In this document: positions 667-32,114 of the stretch, in pieces
How positions within the stretch are numbered: position 1 is the first letter of the stretch
How the letters are laid out: each line of letters starts with the position of its first letter
Origin: Candidatus Latescibacterota bacterium
GTDB lineage: Bacteria > Latescibacterota > UBA2968 > UBA8231
DNA length: 64,000 bases
Direction: 5' to 3'
Assembly (NCBI GenBank): GCA_965221775.1
Contig: CBDCSU010000006.1
Span: 1,696,001-1,760,000 of the forward strand
Notes under the pieces: model-generated
Told to the model about the DNA's origin: nothing
Databases searched by the model: none
The model's input: only the letters and a program-made list of their open reading frames with translations
Program-made: the position numbers and the translations under genes

Positions 667-2019
667 ATGGTCCGAGCGGGCCTGTGCGCGGCCCTCGCGG
701 GGGCCTGCTGGCTGCTGGCCGGGGCCGCCGCCGCGGGTGAGCCGGAGACCGAGGCAAGCCGATTCTGGCCCGCCTGGCGCGGCCCCCTGGGCACCGGCGC
801 CTCTCCCCACGCTGAGCCCCCGCTCCAGTGGAGCCAGACCCGCAACCTGCGCTGGAAGGCGTCCCTGCCCGGCGGCGGCCACTCTACGCCGGTGGTCTGG
901 GGCGACCGGGTCTTCATCACCGCCGCAGTCCCGTACGGCGAGCCCCTGCCGCCGACGTACAGCGGGCTGCCGGGCGGCCACGACGAACGGCCGGTCACCC
1001 ATCGCCACCGGTTCGTCGTCCTTGCCCTGAGCCGCACCACGGGGCGGGTCCTCTGGCAGCGGGTCGTGCGCCACGACCTGCCCCGCGCCGGGGGCCACTA
1101 CACCGCCAGCCTGGCCTCCGCCTCGGCGGTGACCGACGGCGAGCACCTGGTCGCCTCCTTCGGCTCCCACGGGATCTACGGCCTCGACCTCGAGGGGGAG
1201 CTGCTGTGGGAGTTGGACCTCGGCCCCATGGAGCCGCTTCACGGCCACGGCGAAGGCAGCTCGCCGGCGCTCGCCGGCGGGACGCTGATCGTCAACTGGG
1301 ACCACGAGGGCGAGTCCTTCCTCGCCGCCTTCGACAAGAGGACGGGCGGCCTGCGCTGGAAGGCTCCGCGCGAGCCGGCCTCGTCCTGGACCACCCCCAT
1401 CGTGACCGACGCCGGCGGCCGCATCCAGGTCGTGGTCAGCGGCTCCGGGGGAGTGCGCGGCTACGACCTGGCCGACGGCCGCAGGATCTGGGAGTGCCCC
1501 GGCCTCTCGGTGGAGAACGTGGTCTCCACGCCGGTGGCCGGCTTCGGCCTCGTCTTCGCGGGCAGCAGCTACGACCGGCAGGCGGTGCTGGCGATTCCGC
1601 TGCAAGCCGCCGCGGACGAGACCGGCGGGCCCCGCCGGGCCGCCTGGAGCCGCACCCGGGGGGCGCCGTACGTCCCCTCCTTCCTGCTCTACGGGGACGC
1701 CCTCTACTTTGTCCGCCACTTCCAGAACATCCTCACCCGCGTCGACGCCCGAACGGGGCGGGACCGGCCGGGGCCGATGCGCCTGAAGGGCCTCGACCGG
1801 GTCTTCGCCTCTCCCGTCGCCGCTGCCGGCCGCGTGTACGTCACCAGCCGCAACGGCGTCACCGTGGTGGTCAGCCACGCCGATTCGCCCGCCCTCCTGG
1901 CCGTCAACCATCTCGACGACAGCTTCAGCGCCTCGGCGGCACTGGCCGGCGGCGAGCTCTACCTGCGAGGACGACACCACCTCTACTGCATCGCGGAGCA
2001 TCCGCCCCCGGCCCGGTGA
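667..2019 (+). CDS. Secreted PQQ-binding-like (BamB-like) beta-propeller protein
   Basis: Signal peptide, WPAWRGP, STPVVWGDRVF and repeated SSP/STP...W propeller blades. Confidence 0.85.
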   Translation: MVRAGLCAALAGACWLLAGAAAAGEPETEASRFWPAWRGPLGTGASPHAEPPLQWSQTRNLRWKASLPGGGHSTPVVWGDRVFITAAVPYGEPLPPTYSGLPGGHDERPVTHRHRFVVLALSRTTGRVLWQRVVRHDLPRAGGHYTASLASASAVTDGEHLVASFGSHGIYGLDLEGELLWELDLGPMEPLHGHGEGSSPALAGGTLIVNWDHEGESFLAAFDKRTGGLRWKAPREPASSWTTPIVTDAGGRIQVVVSGSGGVRGYDLADGRRIWECPGLSVENVVSTPVAGFGLVFAGSSYDRQAVLAIPLQAAADETGGPRRAAWSRTRGAPYVPSFLLYGDALYFVRHFQNILTRVDARTGRDRPGPMRLKGLDRVFASPVAAAGRVYVTSRNGVTVVVSHADSPALLAVNHLDDSFSASAALAGGELYLRGRHHLYCIAEHPPPAR

Positions 2020-2044
2020 ACCCGGCAGGCGCCGGCGGTGTCAA
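2018..2044 (+). promoter_or_regulatory. Candidate ECF-type promoter upstream of the sigma gene
   Basis: GAACCC-N16-GTCAA, then GGAGG RBS and ATG at 2060. Confidence 0.35.
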
Positions 2045-2059
2045 CCGGGTGGAGGCCGG

Positions 2060-2665
2060 ATGGGGAAGAGCGACGAGGAGCTGGTCCGCGGGGTGATCGA
2101 GGGGCGGCAGGAAGACTTCGCCGAGCTCTTCGAGCGCTACCGCGCCGATGTGCAGCGGCACCTGCGGCGGATCCATCGCCATGACGAGGACGCCGCCGAC
2201 GTCGGGCAGGAGGTGTTCCTGCGCCTGTGGCACCGCGCCGGACAGTGGAAGGGCGACGGCCCCCTGCTCGCCTGGCTGCTGCGCATCGCCACCAACCTCG
2301 CCCTCAACCACATCCGCTCGGTCCGGCGCCGCCGCGAGCAGCCGCTGCAGCCGCCCCCCGCCATGGACGGAGAGGAGGAGGACGACACCCGGGTTCCGGA
2401 GTGGATGATCGACGCCTCCACCCTTCCGCCCGACGAGGTCCTGGCCGTGGCCGAGCGCCGGCGGCTGCTGCGCGGCCTGGTGACGCGTCTGCCCGAGGAC
2501 GGGCGCAGGGTCATCCGGCTGATCTACGACGGCCACCTGAACACGCGCCAGGCCGCTACCGAGCTGGGCATACCCGAGGGCACGGTGAAGTCCCGGATCC
2601 ACCACGCCCGCAAACAGATCGCTCGATCCTGGCGCGACCTGGGGATCGACTGGGAGGAGGACTAG
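2060..2665 (+). CDS. ECF sigma-70 family RNA polymerase sigma factor
   Basis: Region 2 DAADVGQEVFLRLW / AWLLRIATNLALN; region 4 ELGIPEGTVKSRIHHARK. Confidence 0.95.
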   Translation: MGKSDEELVRGVIEGRQEDFAELFERYRADVQRHLRRIHRHDEDAADVGQEVFLRLWHRAGQWKGDGPLLAWLLRIATNLALNHIRSVRRRREQPLQPPPAMDGEEEDDTRVPEWMIDASTLPPDEVLAVAERRRLLRGLVTRLPEDGRRVIRLIYDGHLNTRQAATELGIPEGTVKSRIHHARKQIARSWRDLGIDWEED

Positions 2666-2667
2666 GC

Positions 2668-5600
2668 ATGGCGACCGCACCGTCCAACCCGTGGCACAAG
2701 GCGTCCTTCGACGAATTCCTGCACCGCCGCCTTCCCGAGTTGCTGGCCGCACGGCTGGGGGTGACCACCTGCCGCGCCGCAGGGGCCGGCGGTCACGCCT
2801 GCCGGATCGTCCTCGGCGGGCGTTCCGCCGAGGGGGACTTCGAGGTCGAGTACGACGGGCTGCCCGCACCGGACGAGGAGGGCGTCTTCCGGTTGCCGGG
2901 TTCCCCGGACCCGGACGGCGGGCCCCGCCTGCCGCCCCCGAGGACGTACCACGGGGGGGAGCGCGAGCCCTCGGGCGAAGTCGAGCTGGTCGTGCTGCCC
3001 GTGGCCGACCGGGACGACCTGGCCGAGGCCCGAATCGACTGTCTCGGCGACCGGCTCTCGACCTTCATCGAGTCCCGCCTCGGGGAGGTCCCCGGCCACA
3101 CCCCCCTCGACGGGTCCCTCCTGCGGACCCTGGCGCCTCTGAAGGACTGGTTCCACTCCTTCCTGGCCTCCTGCGGCGAGCGGCTCGACGACACCAACTG
3201 GCTGTCCCGGTCCGCGCACCTGCGCCGGATCCTGGTCCCGGACCGCCAGGAGGTATTCACCCCCGGCCACTTCGGCCGCACCTGCCCCTTCGAGACCCCG
3301 GAGGGACCGAACATCGGCCGCGTCCTGACGATCTCCCGGGGCGCGGAGATCCGCGGCCGCCGGCTGGTGATCGTCGACGCGAAGCCCGCGGAGGGACTGG
3401 GCATGTCCAGCGCATGCATCCCCTTCCTCGAGCACGACGACGGCAACCGCGTGCTCATGGGCGCCAACATGATGCGCCAGTGGCTGGCGCCCGCCGAGAG
3501 AGAGCCGGCCTTCGTGCGGACCGGCCTCGAGCCGCGGGCGCCGGACTTCTGGTGCGGCCGGAACCTGCTCACGGCTCTGCTCTCGTGGGACGGGGACGCC
3601 TTCGAGGACGCCGTGCTGCTCAGCCGGTCCGGCGCCCGCAAGCTCGCCTGCCCGGAGCCCCTCGAGCCCGGCGACAAGCTCAGCAACCGCCACGGGATCA
3701 AGGGCGTCGTGTCCCGGGTGGCGCCCGACGAGGAGATGCCGCGGCTGCCCGACGGCACCCCCGTGGAGCTGGTCTTCAGCTTCTCCGGCATTCCGTCCCG
3801 CTGGGTCATGGGGCTGGTCCGGGAGGCCGCCCTCGGACACGCGGCTCACCTGCGGGGGGAGCCCGCCGTCGTGCCCCCCTTCAAGGCGCCTTCCGACGAG
3901 CAGTTGCGGAACCTGCTTCAGGGCAGCGGCCTGCGCGCCGACGGCATGACCACGCTGACCCTCGACGGCACTCCCCTGCGGCGGCCGGCCACGGCCGGAT
4001 CGGTCTACTGGGGCTGCACCGTGCATCGCGCTCGCCCGAAACTGAGGGCCGCCGTCCACCCCGACGACCGGGGCCAGCGCCTGGGGGAGATGGAGGTGCG
4101 GGCCCTGGCCGAGGCCGGGGCGCCCGCGGTGATCCGGGAGCTGACCAACACCTGCTCCAGCCAACGCGGCGACGCCGGTTCCCTGGCCGAGAGGGCCGCC
4201 GCCGGACCGGTCGAGCCGGCGAGCACCCCCTCTCCCGCCTTCTCGGCCCTGGCGGCGGGTCTGGCGCAGGCCGGAATCCGCGCCGAGGCCGGCCCCCGGG
4301 GGGTCGCCTTCCGGTTGGAACCACCCCGGGGGCCGACGCTGTCCCTGGCCGCCGGCGTGCCCCACCCCTGGTTGCCGGGGAAGACCCTGTCCGAGGTCTG
4401 CGCAGCCGAGGGGGCCGCCGGATATCCCGAGGTCCTCGCCGCCAACGGCAGGCTCGCCCGCCTGCCGAAGGACGGGGCTCCCGAGCCCCTGGCAGCCGCG
4501 GCTCTCGACGATCTGGCCGCCGCTGTCTCGGACCTGTACGACGGACTGGCCGCCGCGCCGCGGCTGGGGCGGGATGGGAATGTCCTCTTCAGCGGCCGTG
4601 CGGTGATCGTCCCCGGGGGCGATCTGCCGGCCGACCGGCTCGGCCTCCCGGCGGAGATGGCCTGGAGCCTCTTCGGGCCGCTGGTGGCCCGCGCGCTGGG
4701 GGATCCCGAAGCGGTGGGGCAGCGCTCCACCGAGGCCGAGGCCGCCCTCGCCGCCGCCATGGAGGCCCACTGGGTCATCCTCGGCCACGCTCCATCGGTC
4801 AGTCCCACGGCGATGCTGGCCTTCCGGCCCCTGCCGATCCCGGGCCACGCCATCCGTCTCTGCCCCCTGGCCTGCGGCCTGTTGGACGCCGATTTCGACG
4901 GCGACCAGGCGGCCGTCTTCCTGCCTCTCACGGAGGCGGCTCAGCGCGAGACCCGCGAGCGGCTGTCCATCGCCGGCCACCTGGCCCGTGACCCCGGCCT
5001 CGTGGAGGACCTCTTCCCGCGCATGGACGCCCTCTTCGGGCTGGCCTGCCTCAGCCGCTCGGCAGCGGGCCGGAAGGCGATTACGCAAGCCGCCGGCCGG
5101 GAGCCGAACCTCGAGGGCGGCCTCCTCACCCGCGAGGCGGCGGCGATGCTGCTGCGGGGTGTCCTGACCGACGAGGGGGAGCAGGCGGCCCTGGGCGTGG
5201 CCGCGGAACTGATGCGGTTGGGGTTCGAGACGGCCCGCGCGGAGGGAGGCTCCGTGGGGCCCTTCATCGGCAGCACCCTCGAACTGCCCGTCCCCCCGGG
5301 GGAGGACGACGCGCCGCAGTGGCAGGCCTGCACGGAGGAAGCCCGGGCGATCGTCGCCGGCTTCCGCGACTACGACGACCACGACCTGGGGGCCGCCGCC
5401 CTGCTGTGCCACAGCGGCGCCCGGGCCACGGTCCATCAGCTCACCACCCTGGTGGGGCCGGGCGGACTCGTTCGCGACGTCGAGGGCCGGGTCCTCGGAG
5501 TCGCCCGCTCCTGGCGGGAGGGACTGACCGCGCGGGAGGTGCTGGCCCGGGTCGTCGGCGCCCGCCGCGGCCTGTTCCGCGTCCTGACGGAGTTCGGATC

Positions 5601-5769
5601 CCTCGGCCGGGAGCGGTCCGGGTCCGGGCCGGAGGGGTTCGGCGTCCTGGCCCGGGCCCGCCGGGTCGAGCGCCCGGGCCTCGTCTTCGCGAGGGCTGCC
5701 CTCAGGGGCGAGGTCGATCCCCTGGAAGACGAGCAATCGCGGCTGCTGGTCGGACTGTCCAGGCCGTGA
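2668..5769 (+). CDS. Miniature single-chain RNA polymerase beta/beta' fusion homologue (1033 aa)
   Basis: Collinear RpoB motifs (GRTCPFETPEGPNIG, IPFLEHDDGNRVLMGANMMRQ, FEDAV, GDKLSNRHGIKG, GQRLGEME) then RpoC motifs (SGRAVI, DADFDGDQ, SGAR, REGL..GARRGL) in one open frame. Confidence 0.93.
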   Translation: MATAPSNPWHKASFDEFLHRRLPELLAARLGVTTCRAAGAGGHACRIVLGGRSAEGDFEVEYDGLPAPDEEGVFRLPGSPDPDGGPRLPPPRTYHGGEREPSGEVELVVLPVADRDDLAEARIDCLGDRLSTFIESRLGEVPGHTPLDGSLLRTLAPLKDWFHSFLASCGERLDDTNWLSRSAHLRRILVPDRQEVFTPGHFGRTCPFETPEGPNIGRVLTISRGAEIRGRRLVIVDAKPAEGLGMSSACIPFLEHDDGNRVLMGANMMRQWLAPAEREPAFVRTGLEPRAPDFWCGRNLLTALLSWDGDAFEDAVLLSRSGARKLACPEPLEPGDKLSNRHGIKGVVSRVAPDEEMPRLPDGTPVELVFSFSGIPSRWVMGLVREAALGHAAHLRGEPAVVPPFKAPSDEQLRNLLQGSGLRADGMTTLTLDGTPLRRPATAGSVYWGCTVHRARPKLRAAVHPDDRGQRLGEMEVRALAEAGAPAVIRELTNTCSSQRGDAGSLAERAAAGPVEPASTPSPAFSALAAGLAQAGIRAEAGPRGVAFRLEPPRGPTLSLAAGVPHPWLPGKTLSEVCAAEGAAGYPEVLAANGRLARLPKDGAPEPLAAAALDDLAAAVSDLYDGLAAAPRLGRDGNVLFSGRAVIVPGGDLPADRLGLPAEMAWSLFGPLVARALGDPEAVGQRSTEAEAALAAAMEAHWVILGHAPSVSPTAMLAFRPLPIPGHAIRLCPLACGLLDADFDGDQAAVFLPLTEAAQRETRERLSIAGHLARDPGLVEDLFPRMDALFGLACLSRSAAGRKAITQAAGREPNLEGGLLTREAAAMLLRGVLTDEGEQAALGVAAELMRLGFETARAEGGSVGPFIGSTLELPVPPGEDDAPQWQACTEEARAIVAGFRDYDDHDLGAAALLCHSGARATVHQLTTLVGPGGLVRDVEGRVLGVARSWREGLTAREVLARVVGARRGLFRVLTEFGSLGRERSGSGPEGFGVLARARRVERPGLVFARAALRGEVDPLEDEQSRLLVGLSRP

Positions 5770-5854
5770 CGGCCAGGCCGTGCGGCCTCACCCGCCGACC
5801 GCCTGGGCGTGCCCGCGGGAGTGGTGTCGAGTGTCGGCCCGGCGGCCGGCAGCG

Positions 5855-6784
5855 CTAGCCGTCCGGCCCGCGCAACTCGATGGCGTCCAGCAGTTGCTGA
5901 GGGTTGGCCAGGTCCACGGGCAGGAGCACGTCCGTCTTGCCGTCGGCCAGACCGCGCAACGTCTTGAGATAGCGCTCCGCCAGCTGCAGGTGCACCGACT
6001 GGGCGCCGCCGGCGACGCTGATCGAGGCGGCGATCTTCTCGATCGACTCGGCCGTCGCATGGGCGATGGCCCGGACCTCCTCGGCCTGACCCTGGGCCTC
6101 GTTGATGGTGCGCTGCATCTCGCCCTCCGAGCGGTTGATCAGCTCCAGGCGCCGGCCCTCCGAGGTGTTGATGCGGCTCTGCTTGTCGCCCTCGGACTGG
6201 GCCACGACGGCGCGGCGGTCGCGCTCGGCGGTGACCTGCTTCTCCATGGCGTCCTTCACCGTCGGCGGCGGCGACAGGTTCTTGATCTCGTAGCGGTGGA
6301 CGCGGATCCCCCAGGTCTCCCCCGACCTCTCCAGCACCTCCACCACTTTGGCCGAGATCAGGTCGCGCTCCTCGAAGGTCCGGTCGAGCTCGAGGGTGCC
6401 GATGACCGAACGGGTCGTGGTCTGCGCCAGTTGCATGGCGGCGAAGGAGTAGTTGGTCACCCCGTAACTGGCCTTCACCGGATCGGTGACCGAGATGTAG
6501 AGGACGCCGTCCACCTCGACCTGGACCTCGTCCCGGGTGAAGCACTCCTGGGGCGGCACGTCGACGGTCTCCTCCTTGAGATCGCGGATGAAGGCCACCT
6601 TCTCGATGAAGGGCACGAGGGCGTGGAAACCGGGGTTCAGAGTTCTGGAGTACTTGCCGAGCCGCTCGACGACGTACGCCGACTGGGTCGGCACCAGCCG
6701 GATCGAGCGCAGGAACTTGACGATCAGGACCAGGAACAGGACGGCCCAGACGATGAGGTTGAAGATCTCGAAGACGGTCGACAT
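5855..6784 (-). CDS. SPFH/band 7 (QmcA/paraslipin-like) protein
   Basis: N-terminal TM, VVERLGKY, LAQTTTRSVIG, MEKQVTAER. Confidence 0.92.
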   Translation of the reverse strand: MSTVFEIFNLIVWAVLFLVLIVKFLRSIRLVPTQSAYVVERLGKYSRTLNPGFHALVPFIEKVAFIRDLKEETVDVPPQECFTRDEVQVEVDGVLYISVTDPVKASYGVTNYSFAAMQLAQTTTRSVIGTLELDRTFEERDLISAKVVEVLERSGETWGIRVHRYEIKNLSPPPTVKDAMEKQVTAERDRRAVVAQSEGDKQSRINTSEGRRLELINRSEGEMQRTINEAQGQAEEVRAIAHATAESIEKIAASISVAGGAQSVHLQLAERYLKTLRGLADGKTDVLLPVDLANPQQLLDAIELRGPDG

Positions 6785-6785
6785 G

Positions 6786-7718
6786 TCAGGCCTCCTTCTT
6801 CTGGTTCGGCACGCCGGCGGCGACCTCGCCCAGCCCCTCGAAGAAGCCCTTGATCCGGGCCAGCTCCAGGGGCACGACGGAGACGCTGGACTTGGCGGCG
6901 ATCTCCCGGATCGTCTCGATGTACTCCTCCACCAGCTGCATCTTCAGCGCCGCCGGTCCGCCTTCCTTCTGCACCGCGGCGGCGATCCGCTCGGTGCCCT
7001 CGGCGGTGGCCTCGGCGATGATGGAGATCGCCTCGGCCTGTCCCCTGGCGACGTTGATCCGGCGTTGCTTCTCGCCCTCGGAGATGTTGATCTCCTCCTG
7101 GCGCTCGCCCTCGGAGAGGTTGATGGTGCTCTCCTTCTCCGCCGCGGCGCGGGTGATCTCGGCGCGCTTCTCGCGCTCCGCCTCCATCTGCTTCTCGAGG
7201 GTGTTCACCACGTTCGCCGAGGGCGTGATGTTGCGCAGCTCGTAGCGCAGCACCTTGATCCCCCAGGGATTCGAGGCCTTGTCGATCTCCTGGACGATCG
7301 TCTCGTTCAGGGACTCGCGCTCGTAGAACGACTGGCCCAGGGTCAGCTTGCCGATCTCGGCCCGCATCGTCGTCTGCGCCAGGTTGATGCTGGCGCGGCG
7401 GTAGTCCTCGATGCCGTAGCTGGCGCGCTCGGGATCGAGGACCTGCAGGTAGACCAGGCCGTCCACCTCGACCTGGATGTTGTCGCGCGTGATGCAGGCC
7501 TGGCTGGGGACGTCGATCACCTGCTCGCGCGTCTCGTGGCGATAGGCGATGCGGTCGAAAAAGGGGATGAGGAAGTGGAACCCCGGCTGCAGGACCGCCC
7601 GGAACTTGCCCAGCCGCTCGACGATGACCGCCGCGCGCATGGGCACGACGACAAATGTCTTGAGCACCAGGAACAGGGCGATCAGCACGAGGATCGTGAA
7701 GTACGTCAGAAGGGGCAT
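6786..7718 (-). CDS. SPFH/band 7 (QmcA/paraslipin-like) protein
   Basis: IVERLGKF, CITRDNIQVEVDG, LAQTTMRAEIG, KQMEAEREKRA. Confidence 0.93.
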   Translation of the reverse strand: MPLLTYFTILVLIALFLVLKTFVVVPMRAAVIVERLGKFRAVLQPGFHFLIPFFDRIAYRHETREQVIDVPSQACITRDNIQVEVDGLVYLQVLDPERASYGIEDYRRASINLAQTTMRAEIGKLTLGQSFYERESLNETIVQEIDKASNPWGIKVLRYELRNITPSANVVNTLEKQMEAEREKRAEITRAAAEKESTINLSEGERQEEINISEGEKQRRINVARGQAEAISIIAEATAEGTERIAAAVQKEGGPAALKMQLVEEYIETIREIAAKSSVSVVPLELARIKGFFEGLGEVAAGVPNQKKEA

Positions 7719-21659: not shown

Positions 21660-22702
21660 CAGCGCTCCCCCATAAGCGCCGACGCCGTGCGCCGCCGCAG
21701 CAGGTAGTAGTGGATCAGAGCGCTCCCGGGGAACACGCCTTCCTCCCCCGTCTCGCGGCTGGCGGCGGCGAGTCGGCGGCTGTCACCGCGGCGGCGCCTC
21801 AGGTTGCCCGGATGGGCGGCGATCCAGGCCAGGCCCGCCAGGGGCGCCGCGGCGCAAAGGGGCCGCCGCGCCGCGTAGCGCAGGCAGGAGAGCAGCTCCA
21901 GGAGCACCCGCACGGGCAGGAGCCACAGCAGGCGGCGGGCGGGCAGGTTCTTGATCAGCGCCACCAGGTTGTTGCGGTGGTTGAGATAGGCCTTGCGGAA
22001 GCTGTCGGCCGGGAGGGACTGCCCCGCGTGGTGGAAGACCCTGGACTCCGGCACGGCGAGGATCCGCCAGCCCGCCAGGCGCAGGCGCCAGCACAGATCG
22101 ATCTCCTCGAAGTGCATGAAGTAGTCCAGGTCGAGGGGGCCGACCTCGCGCAACGCCTCGAGACGGAGGAACATCGCCGTGCCGCAGGCCCAGAACAGCT
22201 CCCGGCGGCCGTCGTACTGCCCCTCGTCGCGCTCCACCGTGTCGAAGACCCGGCCCCGGCAGAAGGTGTATCCGAGCCGGTCGATGTAGCCGCCGGCGGC
22301 GCCGCTAGGATCGAAGTACCCCGGCCGGGTCTCCCACAGCAGCTTGGGCTGGCACACGGCCACTTCCGGAGCCTCCGAGGCCGCGTCCTCCAGAGGGGCG
22401 AGCCAGCCCGGCGTCACGCGGGTGTCGTCGTTGAGCAGCAGGGCGAAGGGGGTCTCCGCCGCCTCCAGCCCCCGGTTGCACGAGCCCGTGAAACCCAGGC
22501 GCCGGTCATTGCTCAAAACCTCCATCCGGGGGAACCGGCCGCGGGCGGACTCCAGGGCCGGACCGCCGCCGCCGTCGTCGACGACCAGGACGCGCACCGG
22601 CCGGTCGCTGTGCCGATAGAGGGAATCCAGGCAGTCGCTGAGGGTGTCGGCCCGGTAGTGGGGGATGACGACCGTCGTGGCCGGCTCCGGCCCGGAGGTC
22701 AT
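21659..22702 (-). CDS. Family 2 glycosyltransferase
   Basis: VVDDG, LLNDD, WACGT, FMHFEEIDLCWR. Confidence 0.9.
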   Translation of the reverse strand: MTSGPEPATTVVIPHYRADTLSDCLDSLYRHSDRPVRVLVVDDGGGGPALESARGRFPRMEVLSNDRRLGFTGSCNRGLEAAETPFALLLNDDTRVTPGWLAPLEDAASEAPEVAVCQPKLLWETRPGYFDPSGAAGGYIDRLGYTFCRGRVFDTVERDEGQYDGRRELFWACGTAMFLRLEALREVGPLDLDYFMHFEEIDLCWRLRLAGWRILAVPESRVFHHAGQSLPADSFRKAYLNHRNNLVALIKNLPARRLLWLLPVRVLLELLSCLRYAARRPLCAAAPLAGLAWIAAHPGNLRRRRGDSRRLAAASRETGEEGVFPGSALIHYYLLRRRTASALMGER

Positions 22703-25494
22703 TCGGCCGGGGCGCCGGACCCGGTGGCCGACGTCTCGGCGTCGGCCGTCTCGAGGCGCTCCAGGGCCTTGATCAGGATCTCCCGGTCCAGACTGGCCGA
22801 GTCGAGCTCCCCGTACTCCTCGACGTAGCCCTCGATCACGCCGAGGGCCTCCCGCGCGCGGCCCCCCGCCTGCAGCGTGGCGGCCAGCTCGTGGTAGGCG
22901 GCATAGCCGCGGGGGCGCAGGGCGATGGTCCGGCGGTAGACCTCCTCGGCCCGGTCCAAGGCCCCGTAGTCGTTGTAGAGGATGCTGGCCAGGGCCAGGG
23001 CGTTGTCGTACGTGGCGGACGGGTCGGCGCCATAGCGCTCGACGAGCCCGTGGGCCGCCTTCTCGACGAACTCGGCGGCCAGATCGAACCGCCCCGCCTG
23101 CCGGTAGTTCTCGCTGGCCGCGTAGAGGCCCTCCCATCCCATGGGGACGTTCTCCTCCGCCCACCGGAGCAGCGTCGCCATCTCGTCGACGCGCCCCTCG
23201 GTCTGGTAGATGTCGGCCAGGGTGAGGACGCAGGCCCGGTAGTTCTGCAGCAGCCGGCTGGTGTTCTCGTCCTTGTAGATCGACTCGTCCCGAATGCCCC
23301 GGAAGCGGTAGACCTCCATCAGGTTGCGGGCCAGGGCCTCGGCGTTGCCGCCGCCCCGCACCTTCTCGCGCTTCAGCTTCAGGGTCATGCCCTCCATCTC
23401 GAGATAGGGATCGAGACCGACGCGGTTGGAGCCGGCCACGGTGATGGCGAAGTGGACGGGCCGCCTGAAGTCGTTCCAGTAGACGATGCCGATGACCATG
23501 ATGTCCTGCACCCGCAGCAGATTGTGGCCCGGCGGCGCCGAGACCTCCACGTCGAGTCCGAGGTCCCTGAATTCCCGCGGCCTCTTCGGCGTCAGCCACA
23601 GCCGCTTCTCGAGATCGACCATCTGCGTGTCGGTGAGGGTGGAGTCGATGAAGACGTCGCCCAGCGGCGCCCCGCCGTCCCTGGACATGGCCACCCGGGG
23701 ATCGCGGTCGCGCAGCTGCTTGATGTACCACCCCGTGTTGAGCAGGCTCAGATTGATGATGCTCACGTCCCGGCGGATGCCCTCCACGTGCTGCAGGTAC
23801 CACAGGGGGAAGGTGTCGTTGTCGCCGTTGGTGAAGAGCAGCGAGTTCGGATCGCAGGACTGCAGCAGGTTGTGGGCGTAGTCCCAGGCGATGTAGTCGC
23901 CCCGGCGGTCCTCGATGTGATGCAGCCTCGCGCCGACACCGGCCGGCAGCAGCAGACCGATGCAGGAAACGGCGGCGACCCATCCCGTCCGCAGCGAGAG
24001 CCTCCGGCGCAGGGCCTCGAGGACGGCGGTCCAGCCGAGGCCCATCCACACGGCCCAGGCCAGGAACATGCCCCCGAAGACGTAGTGGCGCTCGCGCGGC
24101 TGCGGGTCGGGCATGTTCAGGTAGAAGGACAGCCCGAAGCCCATGACCAGGAACATCAGGAAGAGGGCCAGGAACCGGCGCCAGTCCCGCCGCAACTGCC
24201 ACCCCAGGCCGAGGAGACCGGCCAGCAGCGGCACGGCGGAGACCGAGATCACGTGGGGCGTCCTCTCGGTGGCCCAGCGGAACACCATGTCCCGCTCGAG
24301 GAAGGGGAAGGGCCACTGCTGCAGGAAGTACTTGAACTGCTGGTGCCACAACTGGTAGACGCGGTCGGCGCGGGGCGTGAGCATGCCCAGCAGCTGGCTC
24401 TCCGTGCCGTACTGCTCGCGGCGGAGGAAGGAGAGGAAGTTGCCCAGGTTCTCCGGGTCGTTCATGTCGATGGCCGGGTCCAGCCCCGAGCGCAGGAACA
24501 GGGCCAGGTAGGTCGAGTACCCGAGCAGGAAGAGGACGCCCACTCCGACCATCAGCCCCAGGGCCCGGCGGTCTTCCCGGTAGAGGTGCACCACCAGGCC
24601 GATACCGCCCGCCAGGAGCACGAGGGCCAGAAGGGGCGCCGAGTCGAGGGCCTTGGCCACGACCACGGCGGCGCCGATGCCGACCGTCACCGCCAGGCTG
24701 TTGCGGTACTCCGGGTGCGTCGAGCCGACGTAGAGGCACAGGGCGACAGCGGCGAGTCCGGCCAGCACGCCGAGGAGTCTCGCCGATGGCGGGTACGGGG
24801 CGAAGGCGCTCATGGACACGGCGGCGGCGAGTCCGGCGACGAGCAGGATCAGGATGGAGCGCCGCAACTGCTGGTCGCCGAACCAGGCCAGCAGCACGAG
24901 GCTGGGGATGGTCAGGAGACAGAGGAGGTGGAGACCGCCCCCGAGCCCGAAGAAGTAGGCGATGAAGAACAGCCAGCGGTCGTTGCCGGCCCCGTGCCGC
25001 GTGCCTTCCCAGTAGAGGATCAGCCACAGGCCGCCGCAGACGAAGAACAGCGAGTAGGCGTAGACCTCGGCCTCGGTGCCGTTGAACCAGAAGGTGTAGG
25101 AGGTGGCCAGGCACAGGGCGGCGACGGCCGAGCCCAGGGTGGCCGTCCAGTCGCGGGCGTCCCCGAAGAAGCGCAGCGCCTCGCCCCCCATGGCGCGGCG
25201 GCAGAGGGCCACGGCGCTCTGGTAGGTGAACCAGACAGCCGCGGCCGATGCCAGGACGGACATGAAGACGACCCGGTTGGCCACGGTCCCTGCGGGGAAA
25301 AGGCTGAAGACCCGGCCGAGGAGGACGTACAGGGGCGACCCGGGCGGATGGGGGATCCCCAGGACGTGGGAGCAGGTGATGAACTCGCCCGTGTCCCAGA
25401 ACGATGTGGAGGGCGCCATGGTCTGCGTGTACAGACCGAGGGTGATCAGGAAGACAGCCCCGCCGGCCAGACGATGCAGTTGTAGTGGGGTCAT
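22699..25494 (-). CDS. DUF2723 (TMEM260-like GT-C) membrane protein with C-terminal TPR-like repeats
   Basis: SFWDTGEF, HPPGSP, EAEVY, REQYG, RERHY, FTNGDNDTFPLWY. Confidence 0.9.
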   Translation of the reverse strand: MTPLQLHRLAGGAVFLITLGLYTQTMAPSTSFWDTGEFITCSHVLGIPHPPGSPLYVLLGRVFSLFPAGTVANRVVFMSVLASAAAVWFTYQSAVALCRRAMGGEALRFFGDARDWTATLGSAVAALCLATSYTFWFNGTEAEVYAYSLFFVCGGLWLILYWEGTRHGAGNDRWLFFIAYFFGLGGGLHLLCLLTIPSLVLLAWFGDQQLRRSILILLVAGLAAAVSMSAFAPYPPSARLLGVLAGLAAVALCLYVGSTHPEYRNSLAVTVGIGAAVVVAKALDSAPLLALVLLAGGIGLVVHLYREDRRALGLMVGVGVLFLLGYSTYLALFLRSGLDPAIDMNDPENLGNFLSFLRREQYGTESQLLGMLTPRADRVYQLWHQQFKYFLQQWPFPFLERDMVFRWATERTPHVISVSAVPLLAGLLGLGWQLRRDWRRFLALFLMFLVMGFGLSFYLNMPDPQPRERHYVFGGMFLAWAVWMGLGWTAVLEALRRRLSLRTGWVAAVSCIGLLLPAGVGARLHHIEDRRGDYIAWDYAHNLLQSCDPNSLLFTNGDNDTFPLWYLQHVEGIRRDVSIINLSLLNTGWYIKQLRDRDPRVAMSRDGGAPLGDVFIDSTLTDTQMVDLEKRLWLTPKRPREFRDLGLDVEVSAPPGHNLLRVQDIMVIGIVYWNDFRRPVHFAITVAGSNRVGLDPYLEMEGMTLKLKREKVRGGGNAEALARNLMEVYRFRGIRDESIYKDENTSRLLQNYRACVLTLADIYQTEGRVDEMATLLRWAEENVPMGWEGLYAASENYRQAGRFDLAAEFVEKAAHGLVERYGADPSATYDNALALASILYNDYGALDRAEEVYRRTIALRPRGYAAYHELAATLQAGGRAREALGVIEGYVEEYGELDSASLDREILIKALERLETADAETSATGSGAPAE

Positions 25495-25549
25495 GGGAAC
25501 GGCCTAAGGTACGAGGGGCGCCCAGGCGCCGAAAGCAAGGGGCGGCGTG

Positions 25550-26203
25550 TCAGCGCAACTCCGCCGTGCCCCAGCGACTCGGGTCCGAGTAGAAGGGCGG
25601 CGAGCGGTCGACCGACCAGGACTGGGACCCGCGATCGACGTCGTTGAGGACGTAGTTGAAGCCGATCCGGTCGAACTCCCGGGGACGGTAGCCGTTGAGC
25701 CCTTCCGCCGGCACGAAGACCTCCATCTGGTAGCTCCGCTTCAGTCGCCGCAGACCGACCTGAAGGGCGTCCTCGGGGCACGGCGGCGCCTGCTCCCGGG
25801 CCCGGTCGATCGACGTCTGGCGGCCTATCGGCTCCGTGCCGTGCCGGCCCCTGCCCCCGGGCAGGAAGAGGAAGTGGTGGCAATAGCGGTTGGCCCGGTG
25901 GCTGTCCTTCACGTCGCGGGTGTCGATCCACACCTCGAAGGAGTCGGCCTGCCAGTGGTTGCGGGGATCGATCCGGAAGCTCTGCTTGCCCTTCACCTGC
26001 ACCGCGAACCACAGCCCGGCGTCGCTCCAGGCCATGTACAGATCGGCGAAGCTGGAGCCCCCATCGACCTCCAGCAGGGGTGGAACCCGGTAAGACGAGT
26101 CCCAGTCTCGCAGGTTCCCGTCGACTACGGGCGGATCCTCCCGGTAGCGGCAAGGGAAGGCGAAGCGGAAGAACGCCCGCCCCGGGGCGGCGATCATGCT
26201 CAT
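25550..26203 (-). CDS. CBM9/DOMON-like sugar-binding domain protein
   Basis: VDGNLRDW, AWSDAGLWFAVQV, DSFEVWIDTR, IGFNYVLNDVD. Confidence 0.7.
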   Translation of the reverse strand: MSMIAAPGRAFFRFAFPCRYREDPPVVDGNLRDWDSSYRVPPLLEVDGGSSFADLYMAWSDAGLWFAVQVKGKQSFRIDPRNHWQADSFEVWIDTRDVKDSHRANRYCHHFLFLPGGRGRHGTEPIGRQTSIDRAREQAPPCPEDALQVGLRRLKRSYQMEVFVPAEGLNGYRPREFDRIGFNYVLNDVDRGSQSWSVDRSPPFYSDPSRWGTAELR

Positions 26204-26231
26204 GGGTAGAGCCCGCGCGGTCCGTTCACGG

Positions 26232-31946
<5,715 letters not shown>

Positions 31947-32114
31947 GGACCTCCGGGTGGGGCTGCAAGGGAGGAAGAAGGCAAACGTGACAATTTACGG
32001 GAGGCGGACGAACCCGCAACCGTCCGGCCCATTCCTTCCCGGGGAGGTGGCCGGTCCCGGGTGAAGACCTTACCGTAGCAGCCGCCACCCGCCACCTGCA
32101 ACGAACCGGGACCG

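Follow-up and report, generated by a model that had tools for sequence, protein, structure and literature searches.

In every cellular-type multisubunit RNA polymerase (RNAP), the trigger loop is considered central to catalysis and fidelity, and to our knowledge a bacterium is normally credited with a single RNA polymerase. What, then, is to be made of a bacterial gene for a further, strongly reduced polymerase without a trigger loop? The question is raised by a Candidatus Latescibacterota bacterium, in the 64,000-nucleotide stretch of DNA analyzed here (the window; contig CBDCSU010000006.1, positions 1,696,001 to 1,760,000), where a forward-strand gene (P0002, 2668..5769, stop codon at 5767–5769) encodes a fused β/β′ protein of 1033 amino acids (aa), hereafter the mini-RNAP. 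Neither this protein nor its family has a trigger loop, and the loss is both genuine and ancient. The gene directly follows one for an extracytoplasmic function (ECF)-type sigma factor, and we lean, if only slightly, toward reading the mini-RNAP as an active, sigma-directed RNA polymerase that would work independently of a trigger loop.

The mini-RNAP matched the Pfam families Rpb2_3 (E = 1.1e-7), Rpb2_6 (9.1e-27), and Rpb1_2 (1.2e-13), with no match to Rpb1_3, Rpb1_4, or Rpb1_5 at E ≤ 1. The NCBIfam models for rpoB, rpoC, and rpoBC matched it only locally and far under their cut-offs (162.5 bits against 801 for rpoB, and 99.9 against 963.5 for rpoC). When a family profile, built from an alignment of 71 members that was also used for conservation and as AlphaFold2 input, was compared by hhalign with the subunits of the same genome, residues 113 to about 500 aligned to β 404–1271 (hhalign probability 100) and residues 583–980 to β′ 263–774 (99.9). 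The AlphaFold2 model (mean predicted local distance difference test, pLDDT, 92.6; predicted template modeling score 0.90) has bacterial β and β′ chains as its closest structural matches (E 1e-24 to 1e-20). Because the top PDB matches are likewise bacterial β/β′ chains by sequence, with viral libraries and models matching more weakly, we assign the mini-RNAP to the bacterial core lineage, and by these comparisons the family derives from bacterial rpoB–rpoC through fusion and heavy reduction.

The family retains both double-psi barrels with all their catalytic motifs, the clamp helices and fork region, and the pre-bridge stretch together with the bridge helix itself. Missing are the β lobes and flap, ~260 residues at the start of β′, about 25 residues that would follow the clamp helices, and the entire segment that joins the bridge helix to region H, trigger loop included. 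The elements follow one another on the forward strand. A family-specific N-terminal domain (residues 1–112; 2668..3003) stands in for the first ~400 residues of β, with the hhalign match to β starting at residue 113, equivalent to β 404; residues 1–141 had no Pfam match, and residues 80–102 have a pLDDT below 50 in the model. The β-like module (residues 113–500; 3004..4167) carries the fork region and a double-psi barrel, and the single long gap in its hhalign alignment drops approximately β 800–1042, which is the flap. The clamp-helix coiled coil (residues 586–627; 4423..4548) aligns to β′ 266–307 of the same genome by both BLASTP and hhalign and is modeled as two helices (586–601 and 606–627). 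Directly after these, the BLASTP alignment to β′ leaves a 25-residue gap in the mini-RNAP, at the presumed location of the rudder and the greater part of switch 2. The catalytic DFDGD (residues 742–746; 4891..4905) is strongly conserved in the 71 members. The bridge helix (residues 955–984; 5530..5619) is a helix in the model and canonical in its first half, the hhalign match to β′ stopping at residue 980 (β′ 774). A Gly-rich loop, GSGPEGFG (residues 985–992; 5620..5643; modeled as coil with a pLDDT of about 69), forms the junction at which ~500 residues, roughly β′ 775–1289, are missing, and the C-terminal block (residues 993–1033; 5644..5766), which matches region H of β′, runs up to the stop codon.

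A preliminary description of the window, made from the sequence alone, had held that the trigger loop is absent and that about 25 aa lie between the motifs GARRGL and LARARR. The first claim was borne out by motif search, Pfam, two profile–profile comparisons, and the AlphaFold2 model, and the second is close, the interval being 24 residues (970–993). The stretch concerned, 5557–5769, encodes residues 964–1033 and the stop codon, 5557 being the first base of G964; GARRGL occupies residues 964–969, LARARR begins at 994, VFARAALRGEVDPL at 1006, and LLVG at 1026, with the C terminus at 1033. The trigger-loop and second-half bridge-helix signatures G[YF]L[TS]RR, GEPG[TS]Q, and R[TS]FH were found in none of the six frames of 1501–7000, and the sole trigger-loop signature in the 5.36-Mb genome belongs to the canonical rpoC on contig C4. 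Similarly, PF04998 (Rpb1 domain 5), a model that we take to cover both the bridge helix and the trigger loop, had the canonical rpoC as its one match in this genome at E ≤ 1, and neither the last 94 nor the last 49 residues of the mini-RNAP, searched alone, gave a Pfam match at E ≤ 10. In the AlphaFold2 model, the bridge helix (955–984) is followed by coil (985–992), short helices (993–999, 1003–1013, and 1022–1028), and the C terminus, so that 49 residues remain beyond the bridge helix.

In the closer comparison, a profile made from the last 104 columns of the family alignment was matched with one of 66 canonical β′ sequences from bridge helix to end (taken from fetched rpoB–rpoC loci, of which 67 had a suitable open reading frame and 65 were kept, plus the β′ of this genome). 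It gave only two matches, one to the pre-bridge stretch and bridge helix (E = 5.3e-5) and one to region H (E = 0.084), with none to the trigger loop; a diverged trigger loop, which the preliminary description had considered, was thus sought by profile alignment and not found. Comparison of the C terminus by hhalign against one single β′ C-terminal sequence was uninformative. Across the family, the linker from RxGL to VLARA measures 20–38 aa in all 71 aligned members (24 aa in 42 of them), and the tail after the final conserved G measures 0–13 aa in all 71. Because these lengths are shared by every aligned member, chance or truncation is ruled out as the source of the gap.

The further claim that the second half of the bridge helix is lacking stands only in part: the conserved signature is lost and the helix is shortened, but the second half is not absent, as 15 helical residues follow GARRGL in the model. 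The predicted helix is continuous over 30 residues (955–984), with a poorly conserved second half (10–30% identity at columns 970–989 in the 71 members). The canonical helix, as we take it, runs ~22 residues past the equivalent motif and is nearly invariant in its second half; against that length, the helix of the mini-RNAP is predicted to be shorter by about 7–8 residues, or roughly two turns.

The resemblance of the C-terminal block to region H, also proposed in the preliminary description, is consistent in location and statistically weak. BLASTP paired residues 1006–1029 with β′ 1294–1317 (E = 1.4), and an alternative hhalign match paired residues 1002–1029 with β′ 1290–1317 (E = 0.084). 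A hidden Markov model (HMM) of residues 990–1031 matched 57 of the 66 canonical β′ sequences, and in 54 of these 57 the best match lay at most 40 residues from the region-H motif (K/R)EN(V/I). Scores were low (median 1.1 bits, maximum 8.2), as compared with at most 3.7 bits in shuffled controls (matches in 114/330) and at most −1.0 bits in reversed ones (13/66). Within the tail, the block is the most conserved part, with columns 70%–99% identical.

The mini-RNAP family is chromosomal, patchy across several phyla, and undescribed. In one homolog search, 307 of 8000 scored proteins had E ≤ 1e-3; among the 120 matches listed, nearly all are full-length (about 1000–1090 aa, 43%–98% identity), and the 20 that carry names are without exception called "hypothetical protein." An exhaustive search yielded 389 representatives at E ≤ 1e-30, the full-length ones reaching to within a few residues of the query C terminus. 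Source names among the matches listed include Gemmatimonadota, Armatimonadota, Hydrogenedentes, and Poribacteria, and contig titles add Caldilineaceae, Latescibacterota, and Spirochaetales as carriers. The polymerase gene was present in 65 of 168 genomes searched in its own phylum (E ≤ 1e-60), and its distribution is patchy even inside the genus (4 of 9 other genomes). The gene is single-copy in its own genome, which also has, on another contig, an rpoB (1278 aa) and an rpoC (1365 aa) of normal type. No match covering at least 80% of the mini-RNAP was found among 50,697 phage and 72,556 plasmid records, where the hits were ordinary rpoB/rpoC. Near-identical DNA occurs in sponge and marine metagenome runs of eight studies. 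A full-text literature search, which leaves a description in subscription journals possible, found no paper on the family, and the main text of the ECF reclassification paper mentions neither rpoB, rpoC, nor Gemmatimonadetes.

Throughout the 71 members, the catalytic residues are strongly conserved. D742, D744, and D746 are conserved at 97%, 97%, and 95%, the positions of GDKLSNRHGxKG at 78%–100% (the variable x excepted), and those of NRxLMGxNMxRQ at 80%–98%. Two nearby positions depart from this pattern in the mini-RNAP. Residue 707 (4786–4788), the Arg of the NRAP motif in 59 of the 71 members, is His, and residue 740 (4885–4887), which precedes DFDGD, is Asp, the family having Asn in 42, Asp in 19, Glu in 4, and Gln in 3 of 71. 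Both are positions that we take to be ribose-sensing in canonical β′, and the changes may bring relaxed or altered sugar selection.

The gene upstream of the polymerase (P0003; 2060..2665, forward strand; 201 aa), whose stop codon lies 2 bp before the polymerase start codon, encodes an ECF-type sigma factor with regions 2 and 4 only (Sigma70_r2, 1.8e-14; Sigma70_r4_2, 2.2e-12; TIGR02937, 89.9 bits against a cut-off of 42.9). An ortholog of this factor (42%–93% identical) is located on the same strand, at most ~110 bp upstream of the polymerase, in 17 of the 20 loci with long flanks; of the remaining three, two have an ABC exporter gene between sigma and polymerase, and in one no ortholog was found. 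The inserted exporter genes (ABC_membrane plus ABC_tran, 586–620 aa, with a lower GC content at third codon positions, GC3) lie at L111:5171-6928 (+) and L119:11091-12950 (−). No other neighbor is conserved beside the cassette in these 20 loci, and no anti-sigma gene was found there. Among the 168 genomes of the phylum, 65 carry the polymerase and 62 the sigma factor (E ≤ 1e-30): both occur in 61, the polymerase only in 4, and the sigma factor only in 1, at a contig edge. The estimated gap between the two genes is at most ~110 bp in 46 of the 61 cassettes, 0.4–1.3 kb in 6, and at least 1.9 kb in 9. One genome (G071) has two sigma–polymerase cassettes (C1:1427411-1429675 and C1:3369551-3371728). 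The linker between sigma regions 2 and 4 is unusually conserved in the sigma family, acidic, and ends in VPGWMID.

A structure prediction of the sigma factor in complex with residues 236–1033 of the mini-RNAP, which we do not count as evidence, scored 0.48 (runs 0.48, 0.45, and 0.51) against 0.00 for the best of three controls, with a partner pLDDT of at least 62 and at least 23% of contacts agreeing between runs. In the calibration of the method, 58 of 80 solved complexes and 2 of 110 mismatched pairs attained the mark applied, scores of at most 0.60 being seen in only 7 of these 80 and in both mismatches. Solved sigma/β′ complexes may have been memorized, the alignments were our own, and the N-terminal 235 residues had been cut; at most, the modeling weakly suggests binding between the two proteins.

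A promoter-like motif of ECF type, TGAACC-N13-CGGTGTC (2017..2042, +), ends 17 nt short of the start codon of the sigma gene. Its TGA doubles as the stop codon of an upstream gene for a PQQ/BamB-like β-propeller; the element thus overlaps the end of an unrelated gene. Of 19 loci examined, 18 have the pattern TGAAC[CT]-N13-[CT]GG[TCA]GTC (N12 once) ahead of the sigma gene, and in 15 of these 18 the distance to the start codon is 17–24 nt. In its own genome the exact motif occurs once, as compared with 0.26 expected, and 2017–2042 is the top site in a position weight matrix (PWM) scan (24.3, against 20.7 for the next). Five other genomes contain the exact motif 1–3 times each, and the reversed-pattern control gave none; each has one exact copy before a sigma–polymerase cassette, and the other five hits look intragenic. 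In G071, the second cassette has the variant TGGTGTC, which the exact pattern misses. No convincing second promoter emerged from exact and PWM scans of the genome itself and exact scans of the five others, in which degenerate sites could have been passed over. Judged by the exact motif in these six genomes, the only clear target appears to be the sigma–polymerase operon itself. A scan of 1900–6000 found no sigma-70 promoter and no terminator. In a sponge metatranscriptome run (X20), one contig is ~92% alike over 1912–2987, a span that takes in the sigma gene and the beginning of the polymerase gene, and four short pieces fall within the latter; these contigs come from a relative, may be DNA in an RNA library, and begin upstream of the motif, and they prove neither a transcript start nor expression.

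We infer enzyme activity, sigma binding, and the choice of template because the catalytic residues are conserved, the clamp helices are retained, and a sigma gene is the neighbor; the clamp helices are the canonical docking site of sigma region 2, as the flap is that of region 4. The mini-RNAP would then synthesize RNA without a trigger loop, as other minimal two-barrel polymerases do, and could be expected to be competent in synthesis, with lower accuracy and no transcript cleavage. The sigma factor encoded upstream probably directs it to an ECF-type promoter, the only clear copy of which would drive the sigma–polymerase operon itself. The preliminary view that this is not an ordinary core transcriptase thus holds, whereas the slow or non-processive activity proposed with it does not follow: loss of the trigger loop alone does not imply a poor enzyme, because YonO lacks trigger-loop homology and is nevertheless reported to be efficient (PMC5467207).

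Several observations weigh against an active, sigma-directed polymerase. The flap, canonical docking site of sigma region 4, is deleted in the hhalign alignment, and alanines are conserved in the clamp helices (A592 in 54 of 71 members, A612 in 49 of 71) at positions that we take to be important for sigma-70 binding. Four genomes (G141, G144, G147, and G150, three of them in 1–2 contigs) carry the polymerase without a sigma ortholog at E ≤ 1e-30, and locus L118 has no upstream sigma ortholog at E ≤ 1e-5; loss, replacement, or strong divergence could account for these cases. The promoter geometry is ordinary for ECF factors, so the sigma factor could equally serve the host core enzyme. The Asn before DFDGD, presumably invariant in canonical enzymes, is relaxed in the family, which hints at altered substrate handling. 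Finally, other minimal two-barrel RNAPs keep a trigger-loop remnant, making its complete loss here unusual.

Much of this would suit the main rival explanation, in which the sigma factor serves only the host core RNAP and switches on the operon, and the mini-RNAP is a sigma-independent effector engaged in RNA-templated synthesis, priming, or PolD-like DNA synthesis. The sigma factor is a typical ECF factor with typical promoter geometry, the flap and the clamp-helix positions are altered as described, residue 740 is Asn in 42 and Asp in 19 of the 71 members, and six genomes show no clear exact copy of the motif outside the cassette's own promoter. However, the clamp helices have survived an extreme reduction, the two genes co-occur almost perfectly (61 genomes with both, against 4 with the polymerase only and 1, at a contig edge, with sigma only), the sigma linker is conserved, and neither an anti-sigma gene nor any other conserved partner accompanies them; on balance we regard this explanation as rather unlikely, while giving it more credit than any other rival. 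The polymerase also sits where an anti-sigma gene usually does, downstream of an ECF sigma gene, and it lacks the trigger loop, both of which are compatible with a non-catalytic decoy or anti-sigma-like protein that holds sigma or nucleotides by RNAP-like surfaces. The preliminary description had raised a decoy role, which is improbable: the Asp triad is conserved at 95%–97% and the β-side basic motifs mostly at 87%–100%, overall ~90%–100% among members that are only 35%–60% identical, and a pure binding protein would not need conserved catalytic motifs. With motifs so highly conserved, it is likely that the mini-RNAP works as an enzyme and not as a decoy.

Still less credence attaches to a trigger loop that is present but diverged past recognition, or supplied in trans. 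Its attraction is that minimal two-barrel RNAPs retain a structural remnant unseen by sequence comparison (PMC10770324), and that the conserved acidic sigma linker might reach the active site. Against it stand the mere 49 residues past the bridge helix, which match region H, and the lack of a PF04998 match or motif elsewhere in the genome and of a third conserved gene. The trans-acting factor envisaged in the preliminary description accordingly has a counterpart in the dedicated sigma gene next door, but not in a stand-alone trigger-loop reading frame, of which PF04998 and motif searches of the genome found none, nor in any other conserved neighbor. An artefact, be it a truncated pseudogene, a frameshift, or a misassembly, can be set aside almost entirely: all 71 aligned members share the C terminus and linker length, a convergent gene begins 86 bp downstream, full-length relatives of 35%–98% identity lie on many contigs, and parts of the gene recur, at 90%–99% likeness, in DNA contigs from other sponge-metagenome runs.

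If the mini-RNAP is indeed active and sigma-directed, a more tentative proposal can be made, namely that sigma factor, trigger-loop-less polymerase, and the one cognate promoter form a self-contained chromosomal module orthogonal to the host RNAP, possibly a back-up when the main enzyme is blocked. We consider the back-up role possible because the parts missing from the mini-RNAP (trigger loop, the second-half signature of the bridge helix, the segment presumed to hold switch 2 and the rudder, and the ~500 residues between the bridge helix and region H) are ones at which, as we take it, several inhibitors of RNAP and shut-off proteins of phages act. In one subclade, the operon contains an ABC exporter gene, which fits a role in drug response. 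The family is clearly of bacterial descent rather than a distant phage relative, with its trigger loop cleanly deleted, all catalytic residues preserved, and the protein under selection in several phyla. An active enzyme would be a natural experiment on why polymerases need a trigger loop, a flap, lobes, and the remaining segments lost here. No smaller sigma-associated polymerase would then be known, and engineers would have a candidate for a compact, orthogonal transcription system. Free-living or symbiotic bacteria would, moreover, gain a second, specialized RNA polymerase in their gene content.

The boundaries and surroundings of the gene complete the description. The polymerase starts at ATG 2668, behind the ribosome-binding site GGAGGAGGA and 2 bp past the sigma stop codon. 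A GC3 frame plot shows a frame switch on the forward strand at ~2665, and together with the start codon and its ribosome-binding site this identifies the start of the long open reading frame at 2227, adopted in the preliminary description, as an artefact. The 147-residue Arg/Pro-rich extension so produced (2227–2667) is an out-of-frame shadow over the sigma gene and no part of the polymerase. Downstream lies the convergent SPFH/Band 7 gene (5855-6943, −). Upstream of the sigma gene are the PQQ/BamB-like β-propeller gene (about 640-2019, +; TGA stop at 2017-2019) and a C-terminal fragment resembling RNase II/RNB (2-664, +; weak Pfam hits); neither this fragment nor the SPFH/Band 7 gene is kept beside the cassette in other lineages. 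Elsewhere in the window, two very large high-GC3 open reading frames of 934 and 1920 aa occupy 22699–31994 (−).

Compared with known systems, the mini-RNAP is closest to RpoB/RpoC. It shares with them, at a local identity of 30%–40%, the barrels, DFDGD, the β-side basic motifs, the fork, clamp helices, pre-bridge stretch, the first half of the bridge helix, and region H. It differs in being one chain of 1033 aa, as opposed to ~2640 aa in two (1278 + 1365 in its own genome), and in having no trigger loop, flap, β lobes, β′ N-terminal 260 residues, or β′ tail after region H; the conserved signature in the second half of the bridge helix and the ~500 residues up to region H are also gone. Natural RpoBC fusions are known from Helicobacter and Wolbachia. 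Like the mini-RNAP, such fusions (NF011417 and NF007172) place β before β′ in one polypeptide; however, they measure about 2840–2890 aa and contain all domains, and the mini-RNAP scores only 153 against 4632 bits and 144 against 5372 bits with these models.

Among phage-type enzymes, YonO of the SPbeta prophage is described in PMC5467207 as a single-chain two-barrel DNA-dependent RNAP that has no trigger-loop homology and is processive, forming phosphodiester bonds as efficiently as a multisubunit enzyme, although less accurately and without transcript cleavage. The flap insert is also absent from YonO-related single-chain two-barrel RNAPs (PMC7824862). YonO thus resembles the mini-RNAP in being one chain of ~100 kDa that contains both barrels and lacks homology to a trigger loop. 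By its description, rather than by sequence comparison, YonO is set apart as phage-encoded and sharing few residues with cellular RNAPs, whereas the mini-RNAP is clearly of bacterial β/β′ type, is accompanied by a sigma gene, and has no full-length member in the phage and plasmid records searched. The crAss-like phage gp66, P23-45 gp96/gp64, and QDE-1 have in common with it a minimal two-barrel core with a bridge helix. Other minimal two-barrel RNAPs retain the trigger loop as a structural remnant invisible to sequence comparison, according to PMC10770324, while the mini-RNAP, in contrast to gp66, gp96/gp64, and QDE-1, has no residues available for one. One phage "minor tail protein" model aligns weakly over both barrels (E = 4.4e-8, 8% identity). 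With the operons of ECF sigma and anti-sigma factors, finally, the cassette shares a two-domain ECF sigma factor and an ECF-like, promoter-like motif before its own operon; it differs from them in that its second gene encodes a polymerase rather than an anti-sigma factor and in the conserved linker between sigma regions 2 and 4.

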